DNA of 64,000 bases, taken from NCBI RefSeq assembly GCF_057098645.1, contig NZ_CM169472.1; one strand, written 5' to 3'. This document shows, piece after piece, positions 5,371 through 6,782 of the stretch. A program made the position numbers and the translations under genes. The notes under the pieces are model-generated. The model did not search any database and had not been told where the DNA came from. It saw nothing but the letters and a program-made list of their open reading frames with translations. The stretch's first letter is position 1. The number at the start of each line of letters is the position of its first letter.

Positions 5371-5787
5371 TTTGCATGCACATTCTTTTTCTTGCATGGT
5401 GCCGGGTGCCTCCCGGTGAATTCAGTATCAGCACCTGAATCCGCGATTATCACATATACCTGGTTGCTGATTGCCCCTCCGCACAGGGGGATTCACCATG
5501 CAGTAGTATTTTTAATAAACAGTAAACAAAAAAATCAAGCATTATGCAGGCTGTTTCTTTTTATCACCGGCCACAGCAATACCACAATGCCGCAGACCAG
5601 AGCGCCATCAGTCAGTACCAACATTATCCTGCTGGTGAAATCCATCATCACCATCACTAAAAGCAGGATCACAACAGCAAGCAGACACAGTTTATAAAAC
5701 AATGTTCAGAAAACGCATTCAGCATGCCTAAGGTTCTATTCCTACGAATAGCCAACTTGCAACTTAAAATATTATTTATGCAGCCAA

Positions 5788-6030
5788 TTAAATTCTGGTC
5801 CTTACAATATCAACCTGAAGATTCTTATCTTGTGCTGATTGATAAATCACAAACCTTTTACTACCTGCATTGAAAGAAGTAGACAAAACCAGACAATTAT
5901 CATAACGAGCAAGAACATAATACCAACCATCATTATAATTAATCATTTCATATTCTTTCTTAAACTGCGGTTTGTAATATCCTGTCAGAAATGAAAAAAG
6001 CCAGAAATATGCCACAAAAGCAATCATCAC
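5788..6030 (-). CDS. Hypothetical membrane-anchored protein (moron, gene 2)
   Basis: 80-aa ORF; N-terminal hydrophobic helix MMIAFVAYFWLFSFLTGYY then a soluble domain; 4-bp overlap with the upstream 172-aa ORF; AT-rich. Confidence 0.45.
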   Translation of the reverse strand: MMIAFVAYFWLFSFLTGYYKPQFKKEYEMINYNDGWYYVLARYDNCLVLSTSFNAGSKRFVIYQSAQDKNLQVDIVRTRI

Positions 6031-6545
6031 AATCTCAAAAAAATGTTTTTTATAAATGCCTTATCATAGAAGCATGATACCGATAAAAATCGCCCATAAG
6101 ATCTTATCGAAATTGTGACCGCCAGCGCAATCGCTGCTGACAGTAGCAAAAGAGGTACCTGAATCTTCTGTCTCAATATAGAAAACTCAATAATTGCCGG
6201 CACAAACAATAATTCCACAGCAAAATAAAGGCGAAATACATTTAGCTCTTGCATAGAATGTTTTCTTTTCACTGCGAAAAAGAATACAACACCAATACCC
6301 CAACCGATAAGAAATATAGCAATGACGATAACTGCAAAAAATAAACTTCTGGCAACATCATCAACACCTGCACCTACAATCCACCATGGGAAGCCGTAGT
6401 AAAAAGAAGTACCCCATCCATAGAAATAAGCACTCCCCCATCCAAGGCATCCCATGTAGGCAATAAAAAGTGAAGAACTCCTGAGCAGCGCACCATCCTT
6501 CATAACCACCCCAATACAAGATGATAACATTGGCTTACAACTCAT
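6027..6545 (-). CDS. Hypothetical polytopic membrane protein (moron, gene 1)
   Basis: 172-aa ORF with 4-5 predicted hydrophobic helices, Trp/Gly/Tyr/Phe-rich; AT-rich; occupies the position between Q and the nanS-p-like gene. Confidence 0.5.
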   Translation of the reverse strand: MSCKPMLSSCIGVVMKDGALLRSSSLFIAYMGCLGWGSAYFYGWGTSFYYGFPWWIVGAGVDDVARSLFFAVIVIAIFLIGWGIGVVFFFAVKRKHSMQELNVFRLYFAVELLFVPAIIEFSILRQKIQVPLLLLSAAIALAVTISIRSYGRFLSVSCFYDKAFIKNIFLRL

Positions 6546-6782
6546 AACAAAAGCAATTCAATGCCGTCAAGAGATTACAGGCTAAAAAAACTCTATTACA
6601 TTGCAGTCAGCATGTTTACTACACAAATACAATTCAGAGCATAAAAACTACTCGGCGGCAGGTTATTGAGACTCATCAATGACATGTAAAAAACGCCCAT
6701 TATTGGTGTCAAGTTTCCCCAAAGTTATTCAAAAAGTCAATATTATGCCGTTAATATGTTGCCATCCGTGGCAATCATGGCG

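Follow-up and report, generated by a model that had tools for sequence, protein, structure and literature searches.

The DNA analyzed here is a 64,000-nucleotide window from NCBI RefSeq assembly GCF_057098645.1 (contig NZ_CM169472.1), in which the antiterminator gene Q of a lambda-like E. coli prophage, itself of the lambda type, is followed by a compact AT-rich accessory cassette and then by a nanS-p-like esterase gene. The cassette comprises (i) a gene for a large inner-membrane protein, (ii) a gene for a small membrane protein of the DUF3927 family, (iii) the small RNA (sRNA) STnc100 with its terminator, and (iv) the sRNA AgvB on the opposite strand. An original prediction, made from the sequence alone, had described this interval as a membrane-protein moron directly downstream of Q, in the position that stx occupies in Stx phages. 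The neighboring genes agree with that description (Table 1), as does the base composition: the G+C content is 0.376 at positions 5473-6650 compared with 0.51 in Q and 0.55 in the esterase gene. Also as predicted, tRNA genes are absent (ARAGORN, window positions 1-12000) and no open reading frames (ORFs) resembling A or B subunits of AB5 toxins occur among the listed ORFs of the cargo interval.

Annotations of the cassette already exist for phage 434 and for hundreds of E. coli genomes, and public libraries contain the two protein families as well as the two sRNAs. Our analysis adds four elements to this picture: (i) the two large ORFs are one frameshifted gene, (ii) the slot shared with stx is defined as reaching from the late promoter pR' to STnc100, (iii) the terminator tR' is missing, so that the cargo may be transcribed in lysogens, and (iv) across its family, the large protein is encoded near toxins, effectors, and genes for lipid A modification.

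Table 1. Features of the Q-to-esterase interval and adjoining genes, with positions in the window (aa, amino acids; nt, nucleotides; TM, transmembrane helix)
Feature	Position	Strand	Evidence or remark
NinG-like gene	8065-8727	minus	
Serine/threonine phosphatase gene	7403-8068	minus	
Antiterminator Q, lambda type, 207 aa	6783-7406	minus	98% identity to lambda Q over 207 aa; PHROG 127, E 3e-82
Putative late promoter pR' with Q-binding element and promoter-proximal pause element	6700-6740	minus	Near-identical to lambda pR' until ~+10
pR' -35 element TTGACT	6740-6735	minus	
pR' -10 element GAAACT	6717-6712	minus	
-10-like element AATAAT		minus	After the start of transcription
TfpB/STM1630-family inner-membrane protein gene, 238 aa if intact	5788-6503	minus	Interrupted here
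172-aa ORF	6027-6545	minus	N-terminal part (TM1-TM4) plus 7 aberrant C-terminal residues past the frameshift
C-to-G change (Pro to Ala), private to the window	6059	minus	8 nt upstream of the deletion
Frameshift site with A6 in place of the usual A7	6046-6051	minus	Multi-sequence alignment
80-aa ORF	5788-6030	minus	TM5 and C-terminal beta domain, native frame; PHROG 1521 positions 143-222
DUF3927 'TciB-like' small two-helix membrane protein gene, 55 aa	5535-5702	minus	TTG start; Pfam PF13064, PHROG 1470
sRNA STnc100 (RF02076), full length	5337-5527	minus	144.7 bits, gathering score 47; E 1.6e-33
Intrinsic terminator (3' hairpin of STnc100)	5348-5369	minus	-18.4 kcal/mol, z -3.6
sRNA AgvB (anti-GcvB, RF02702)	5275-5336	plus	96.5 bits, gathering score 56
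AgvB terminator	5311-5330	plus	
Second terminator-like hairpin, preceding the esterase gene	5229-5250	minus	-14.9 kcal/mol
nanS-p-like SASA/DUF6645 esterase gene, 617 aa	3274-5127	minus	PHROG 143; annotation of near-identical genes

A single membrane protein gene interrupted by a frameshift

The original prediction recognized two overlapping ORFs in the cassette, one encoding a polytopic membrane protein of 172 aa and the other an N-terminally anchored protein of 80 aa. Both ORFs are present, but comparison with relatives shows that they are halves of one gene, broken by a 1-nt deletion in a run of seven A residues. Megablast matches covering at least 80% of the 1.5-kb interval were found in 568 complete E. 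coli genomes, and the best of them are 99.8% identical to the window and one base longer. Phages 434 and 2B8 match the interval at 97%. At the large gene, the E. coli, 434, and 2B8 relatives are annotated with a single coding sequence of 717-744 nt, and in a four-way alignment of the window, O157:H7 PA20, phage 434, and phage 2B8 the gene is uninterrupted in all but the window. Three differences separate the window from O157:H7 PA20: T for C at 6574 in the leader, G for C at 6059, and A6 for A7 at 6046-6051. Putting back one A restores a single ORF.

Profile and protein searches divide in the same way. The 222-position profile of PHROG 1521 is matched with positions 1-140 in the 172-aa ORF and positions 143-222 in the 80-aa ORF, and tblastn aligns the intact protein with the window as residues 1-158 and 152-238 in two frames. 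The ratio of nonsynonymous to synonymous substitution rates (dN/dS), calculated against relatives from enterotoxigenic E. coli (ETEC), Citrobacter, Shigella, and Salmonella with synonymous sites near saturation, is 0.12-0.29 for both halves in the common frame, indicating that both are under purifying selection in one frame. All relatives start at a methionine equivalent to the window ATG at 6503, which is preceded by a Shine-Dalgarno sequence, GGGGTGG (6512-6506); the protein therefore has 238 aa, ATG 6503 is the likely true start, and translation probably does not begin at the ATGs farther upstream (6545 and 6530). An uninterrupted ORF of about 230-250 aa, as expected for the family and found in the relatives (233-250 aa), is absent from the window. 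This outcome is close to one that the original prediction had counted against itself, namely that the ORFs are fragments of a known phage gene in another frame: the two are pieces of one known gene.

The large gene in this window is probably a pseudogene; the alternatives are a leaky allele and a sequencing error. Among the 80 IMG/VR loci that encode an identical protein, C at 6059 together with A7 is found in 79 and A6 in none. A 131-nt segment around the frameshift is present in 681 of the 5426 complete E. coli genomes, at most eight of which are within one difference of the window; one of these close genomes was inspected and has the same deletion, annotated 'frameshifted'. The G at 6059 is absent from every other sequence compared. 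Over 88% of the first 12 kb of the window, no complete genome is closer than 99.6% identity (best matches 99.5-99.6%). The two private changes within 9 nt could mean that the allele is genuine and decaying or, alternatively, that the sequence contains a local error.

The frameshift lies in a predicted cytoplasmic loop ahead of helix 5. It leaves an A AAA AAC heptamer in frame 0, at which a -1 slip would regain the native frame with one Lys-to-Asn change, and the premature TGA overlaps a GTG/ATG (UGAUG) at the start of TM5. The A6 allele may thus yield small amounts of full-length protein or of a product in two pieces. These features bear on the idea that in this strain the cassette is merely decaying, with the large gene dead and function left only in the sRNAs. 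Such decay would fit the frameshift and the unique missense change 8 nt apart, the insertion sequence (IS) elements and truncated lysis genes in the prophage neighborhood of close relatives, and the second genome carrying the deletion. We nevertheless consider it unlikely: the remainder of the large gene is 100% conserved as protein, the DUF3927 gene, STnc100, and AgvB are all intact, the slip site and the UGAUG overlap could permit some product, and the two clustered differences seen only in the window could be sequencing errors.

Family assignment and predicted structure of the large protein

Profile matches assign the large protein to the TfpB/STM1630 family (PF27470; PHROGs 1521, 14371, and 3985). 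The 172-aa ORF matches PHROG 14371 (E 8.2e-103) and PHROG 1521 (E 3.8e-90), the 80-aa ORF matches PHROG 1521 (E 1.7e-52) and PHROG 3985 (E 1e-50), and identical and related proteins carry the precomputed Pfam label PF27470 'TfpB'. The newest name given by the Prokaryotic Genome Annotation Pipeline (PGAP) to an intact copy, identical to the repaired window protein apart from the Pro-to-Ala change, is 'STM1630 family protein'; in older records the large protein is 'hypothetical' or a 'putative membrane protein'. The family is small: in a set of 1.84 billion proteins it accounts for 74 clusters at 50% identity, with members in Enterobacteriaceae, Pasteurellaceae, Neisseria, and Moraxella. The Pfam name presumably refers to the ORF tfpB associated with pilin inversion in Moraxella, a link for which the sole support here is a structural relative from Moraxella caprae. 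The cargo, regarded in the original prediction as being of unknown function, is therefore of a kind already catalogued (PF27470/'STM1630 family' together with DUF3927), although neither family has a tested function.

Other libraries contributed little to this assignment. A Pfam-A scan of the intact protein gave no match, as the library copy scanned does not contain PF27470, and an NCBIfam scan gave none for the large protein, the PGAP name notwithstanding. A sequence profile search of PDB returned no matches at E<=10, and a search of the BFVD viral structures no significant match; the likeness of the large protein to solved structures and viral models did not exceed that of generic helical bundles.

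The fold was modeled with AlphaFold2 (AF2) for the intact E. coli reference protein, which is one residue off the repaired window sequence. With 20 close sequences the model was unusable, with a predicted local distance difference test (pLDDT) score of 57; when 16 distant relatives from profile searches were added (36 sequences in total), the pLDDT was 80.6 and the predicted TM-score (pTM) 0.75. The latter model contains helices at residues 10-36, 47-79, 88-111, 116-137, and 155-181, and a five-stranded C-terminal domain after the fifth helix. Relatives in the AlphaFold database gave TM-scores of 0.7-0.9. A segment rich in aromatic residues and glycine, GWGSAYFYGWG-SFYYGFPWW, lies between TM1 and TM2 and is highly conserved across the family alignment, so that the intact reference combines five TMs, this motif, and the C-terminal beta domain. 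The N-terminus, loop 80-87, and loop 138-154 are enriched in lysine and arginine residues, and from this distribution an N-in/C-out topology is predicted, with the aromatic/glycine segment and the beta domain in the periplasm. The large protein would accordingly span the membrane five times, showing the aromatic/glycine loop and a beta domain of ~55 aa to the periplasm. The family alignments show no obvious constellation of conserved His, Asp, Ser, or Cys residues; in the absence of conserved residues of a catalytic type, a binding or structural role in the envelope is expected. Topology and remote-homology prediction, which the original prediction had proposed as checks, thus gave a five-TM model with a beta domain and a family match.

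The DUF3927 protein

The possible third ORF of the original prediction, a small two-helix ORF at about 5536-5700, is a real gene. Its 55-aa product matches Pfam PF13064 (DUF3927; E 1.6e-13, residues 7-51) and PHROG 1470 'TciB-like' (E 2.7e-19), and the gene is annotated in O157 and in phage 434. The TciB label stems from the tciABC genes of phage P1, where tciA resembles terB (PMC9603915, PMC10695390). The description 'tellurite/colicin resistance or cell-division inhibition' rests on this resemblance of tciA and not on an assay of TciB. P1 TciB shares DUF3927/PHROG 1470 with the 55-aa protein; however, P1 has TciA as a TerB-like partner, whereas the window has no TerB-like gene. A tblastn search with the 55-aa protein gave no P1 record among 12 phage matches at E<=1e-3.

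Comparison of the Q-downstream interval across the IMG/VR loci showed that a Q gene, of the lambda or 82 type, precedes the large gene in 80 of 80 loci and that the DUF3927 gene is the next gene after it in 79. Outside E. coli prophages, the large gene travels alone in the contexts inspected. An obligate partnership of the two genes was ruled out by the absence of DUF3927 from the ETEC, Citrobacter, Yersinia, Salmonella, Neisseria, and Avibacterium contexts. A 41-aa ORF after Salmonella STM1630 was considered as a DUF3927 counterpart and found to be unrelated to this family.

The cassette occupies the slot between pR' and STnc100

The window and phage lambda are near-identical through the Q stop codon, the pR' -35 element, the Q-binding element, the -10 element, and the first ~10 transcribed bases, and are unrelated beyond this point; from this homology we infer that 6700-6740 acts as pR'. 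The -10 element is GAAACT in the window, O157:H7 PA20, and 2B8, and TAAATT in lambda. The pause element AATAAT of the window is nearer to the consensus than AACGAT of lambda. On the other side of the cassette, homology to Stx phages resumes at 5503-5300, a segment that has stxB on one side and the esterase gene on the other in Shigella phage 75/02 Stx, and STnc100 is located 75 nt downstream of the stx2 operon in Stx2 phages (PMC12370729). The cargo slot therefore extends from pR' to STnc100, and by this comparison the cassette takes the place that stxAB has in Stx phages, in accordance with the original prediction. The absence of the insert from lambda at the same junction, together with its deviant G+C content, supports its description as an AT-rich accessory moron directly after Q.

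The minus-strand terminator that had been placed at 5346-5370 is a strong hairpin; it is, however, the 3' hairpin of STnc100, and both this sRNA and AgvB on the opposite strand had been missed. The STnc100 match covers model positions 1-206 of 206 and starts 8 nt past the DUF3927 stop codon, while the AgvB match covers positions 1-62 of 62 and agrees with the consensus at every aligned position shown. At the same place, AsxR scored 43 bits, under its gathering score of 63. The two sRNAs are convergent between the cargo and the esterase gene. The STnc100 terminator is the first strong one downstream of pR' and provides the downstream terminator expected of a moron.

According to a preprint, PasD sRNAs are related to STnc100, and Q and LpxR are found within 10 kb of >98% of PasD copies (bioRxiv 10.64898/2026.05.13.724894), a linkage that fits the order LpxR, 82-type Q, cassette in phage 434. 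The 434 segment after DUF3927 gives a full-length STnc100 match of 41.4 bits, below the gathering score. This match is overlapped by CPT_434_70 (4116-4350 of the compared 434 stretch), a 62-aa 'putative membrane protein' with a Leu-codon start and an annotated terminator inside. It was rejected as a third membrane protein of the cassette, as it has neither a window counterpart nor a PHROG, and is more likely a PasD/STnc100-type sRNA segment.

Proposed expression from the prophage

The promoter pR' is described as active in lysogens and normally halted at once by tR' in one account of its function (PMC7547250). Lambda tR' is absent after the window pR'. Phage 434 has a terminator before the cassette (-13.3 kcal/mol, z -3.8), whereas the homologous site of the window is degenerate (-2.2 kcal/mol). 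Folding of the leader RNA from pR' to the start codon is unremarkable (z 0.01), and a U-tract scan of 6720-5200 found no compact hairpin before 5347. Since tR' is missing and no compact terminator occurs from pR' to 5369, transcription in lysogens probably runs through the cargo to the STnc100 terminator. Just upstream of the real start codon we also found a sigma-70-like promoter candidate at 6541-6570 on the minus strand (TTGACG, an 18-nt spacer, and TG-n-TATGAG), and a promoter scan gave a second candidate at 6550-6521.

In the expression scheme that we propose, transcripts from pR' and/or the 6570-6541 promoter would cross both protein genes and end at the STnc100 terminator. For the esterase and lysis genes, this terminator would act as an upstream barrier sensitive to Q; the prophage would express the cargo even when uninduced and would over-express it once induced. 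The terminator located upstream of the cassette in phage 434 implies a different balance between the pR' and internal-promoter routes in that phage.

The same arrangement could be read as a late-phase phage function, with proteins that appear chiefly once Q has antiterminated and that assist the esterase/holin/endolysin block (lysis timing, envelope breakdown, or release), or the genes could serve chiefly as a carrier transcript for STnc100 maturation. The cassette is inside the late transcription unit and just upstream of the lysis cassette, STnc100 begins almost immediately after the DUF3927 gene, and the 434 terminator makes Q-dependent expression expected in that phage. However, phage 434B, with a replacement of ~5.5 kb that extends over Q, the late promoter, and the lysis region, still forms plaques (PMC9119081), and the cassette is therefore dispensable for lytic growth. 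Moreover, lambda and many lambdoid phages have no such cassette, non-phage members of the family are under purifying selection, and STnc100 also follows stx, where these genes are absent (PMC12370729). We thus regard a late-phase or carrier role as very improbable.

Distribution of the TfpB/STM1630 family

The large gene was found in only two distinct phages, 434 and 2B8 (3 of 50,697 phage records), and a Yersinia prophage has a family gene downstream of a different Q. On ETEC plasmids, a 59%-identical member is located ~870 nt upstream of, and divergent from, eltAB (e.g., pUMNK88_Ent 17903-18616), in an IS-flanked region with STb and EAST1 within 4 kb; the exact ETEC protein is listed in 1285 blocks of the assembly collection. 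In Shigella, a member is present on 106 plasmids including the pINV plasmid pWR100. The pWR100 member of S. flexneri M90T (6001-6717 of the compared stretch) has 57% identity and stands by itself among IS elements. The name 'TfpB protein' is given to the pINV member in one S. dysenteriae record.

The Salmonella member P0074 (46% identity) lies beside an sseJ-like gene (Sif and Lipase_GDSL domains, 408 aa), and this adjacency, the same as for STM1630, identifies it as STM1630. The Citrobacter rodentium and Salmonella copies occupy the same chromosomal locus with ADH, MCP, and LysR neighbors; the other flank is a split LpxR gene in C. rodentium versus sseJ in Salmonella. Linkage to LpxR recurs in C. 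rodentium and phage 434.

STM1630 is listed among the genes co-regulated with the virulence regulon of Salmonella pathogenicity island 2 (SPI-2) (PMC2639726). Intra-macrophage RNA-seq led to its selection for macrophage-infection tests, and its expression is lowered in the ST313 strain D23580 during macrophage infection (PMC6785131, 10.1101/450098); two single-nucleotide polymorphisms in the -10 box silence it in ST313 (PMC6785131). One screen gave a hypermotility phenotype for STM1630 (PMC4219756). A later study describes a clean STM1630 deletion that was rebuilt for retesting and warns that polar effects could account for some phenotypes of that screen (PMC4534456).

Proposed role of the cassette

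The location of relatives beside toxin, effector, and lipid A genes of host-associated bacteria and the co-regulation of STM1630 with SPI-2 favor a role in lysogenic conversion over a role in phage growth or defence. As a whole, the locus is best explained as a pR'-to-STnc100 cassette that is expressed in the lysogen and serves lysogenic conversion by adapting the envelope to the animal host, and we give this explanation an even chance of being correct.

A role in defence, which the original prediction had suggested in the form of abortive infection or superinfection exclusion, would have the prophage-expressed membrane proteins prevent the entry of DNA from other phages or abort their infections. 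Small and polytopic prophage membrane proteins are common in exclusion, as exemplified by SieA of P22, Imm of T4, and gp15 of HK97. The cassette for its part has a prophage accessory slot, inner-membrane products, dispensability for lytic growth, and, for the large gene in E. coli prophages, an invariable position downstream of Q. Yet PADLOC models match neither protein, even at E<=1, and the large gene is confined to two distinct phages, most lineages of the family being found on virulence plasmids or on chromosomes without phage context. The Salmonella ortholog is regulated with SPI-2, and no exclusion phenotype for 434 lysogens is reported in the literature consulted. Defence is therefore quite unlikely in our opinion.

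Several points weigh against the lysogenic-conversion role itself. No experiment shows a function for the TfpB/STM1630 family, and an STM1630 deletion mutant replicated in macrophages without a defect (PMC6785131). Hitch-hiking of AT-rich cargo on mobile elements, combined with sampling bias toward pathogens, may be all that the association with virulence loci reflects, and the Avibacterium and Neisseria copies are lone chromosomal genes among housekeeping genes. The membrane topology is a prediction. As for expression, the internal promoter match is at chance level (three promoter-like sites compared with 5.2 expected from shuffles), the window -10 element GAAACT is weaker than TAAATT of lambda, phage 434 has a good terminator ahead of the cassette, and the case for pR' expression comes from the absence of a recognizable terminator, with Rho-dependent or weak terminators possible.

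A broader hypothesis extends the lysogenic-conversion role to the family. The TfpB/STM1630 proteins would be general companions of enterobacterial virulence cargo (the stx slot in prophages of the enterohemorrhagic E. coli (EHEC) type, eltAB, pINV, sseJ, and LpxR) that act on the envelope, through the periplasmic aromatic loop and beta domain, during colonization of the host, for example in the release of periplasmic toxins or vesicles or in tolerance to host antimicrobials. In the lineage with lambda-type Q, the gene would be constitutive and upstream of the only functional late terminator, STnc100 being the 3' end of the lysogenic transcript driven from pR'. We consider this generalization unlikely. 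The family-wide co-location makes the membrane protein worth a functional test in EHEC, ETEC, Shigella, or Salmonella.

Neighboring features

A class II holin gene is also on the minus strand, in the same gene run as Q and the esterase gene. A second stretch of very high AT content (G+C 0.28-0.39) is found at ~9270-11700, upstream of the nin region, and includes a short tandem repeat at ~9350-9450, read as LFLFLF or ISISIS in overlapping ORFs. A 215-aa ORF at 8642-9289 on the minus strand overlaps the 5' end of the NinG-like gene; the corresponding gene of O157:H7 PA20 carries the annotation HNH endonuclease. A bamE-like gene and an IS30 fragment are contained in the stretch that lies upstream of this endonuclease gene and ninG in O157:H7 PA20.

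Comparison with known systems

The closest known systems are the cassettes of phages 434 and 2B8, which have the same gene order after Q: CPT_434_68 ('putative membrane protein') and CPT_434_69 ('TciB') in 434, and gp58 and gp59 in 2B8. Their DNA is 97% identical to the window from ~6650 to ~5473, and the large protein of 434 is 100% identical to the intact E. coli reference. Phage 434 differs from the window in that its Q is of the 82 type, its cassette is preceded by a good terminator and, 1.3 kb upstream, by an LpxR moron, and its copy of the large gene is intact, whereas that of the window is frameshifted. At the right-hand border, the window has canonical STnc100 and AgvB, whereas 434 has a diverged STnc100/PasD-like segment with the annotated 62-aa ORF.

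Salmonella STM1630 likewise encodes 238 aa, with 46% identity and the same predicted fold of five TMs and a beta domain. Both genes are AT-rich, horizontally acquired, and next to virulence cargo; however, STM1630 is chromosomal beside sseJ, lies outside a prophage, and has its own mapped promoter (PMC6785131).

The stxAB cargo of phages 933W, Sp5, and 75/02 Stx is likewise situated between Q/pR' and the STnc100 segment with the nanS-p esterase gene, and both cargoes are accessory and not needed for phage growth. The window cassette differs from it in having no AB5 toxin, no tRNAs, and no tR' right after pR', and in encoding membrane proteins and not a secreted toxin. With the bor/lom-type morons of lambda, in the sense of Juhala and Hendrix, the cassette shares the character of an extra, compositionally deviant insert between conserved phage modules, with a terminator at its end and plausible expression from the prophage. 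It differs from these morons in that its own promoter is only a candidate and that, tR' being absent, it may use the constitutive late promoter.

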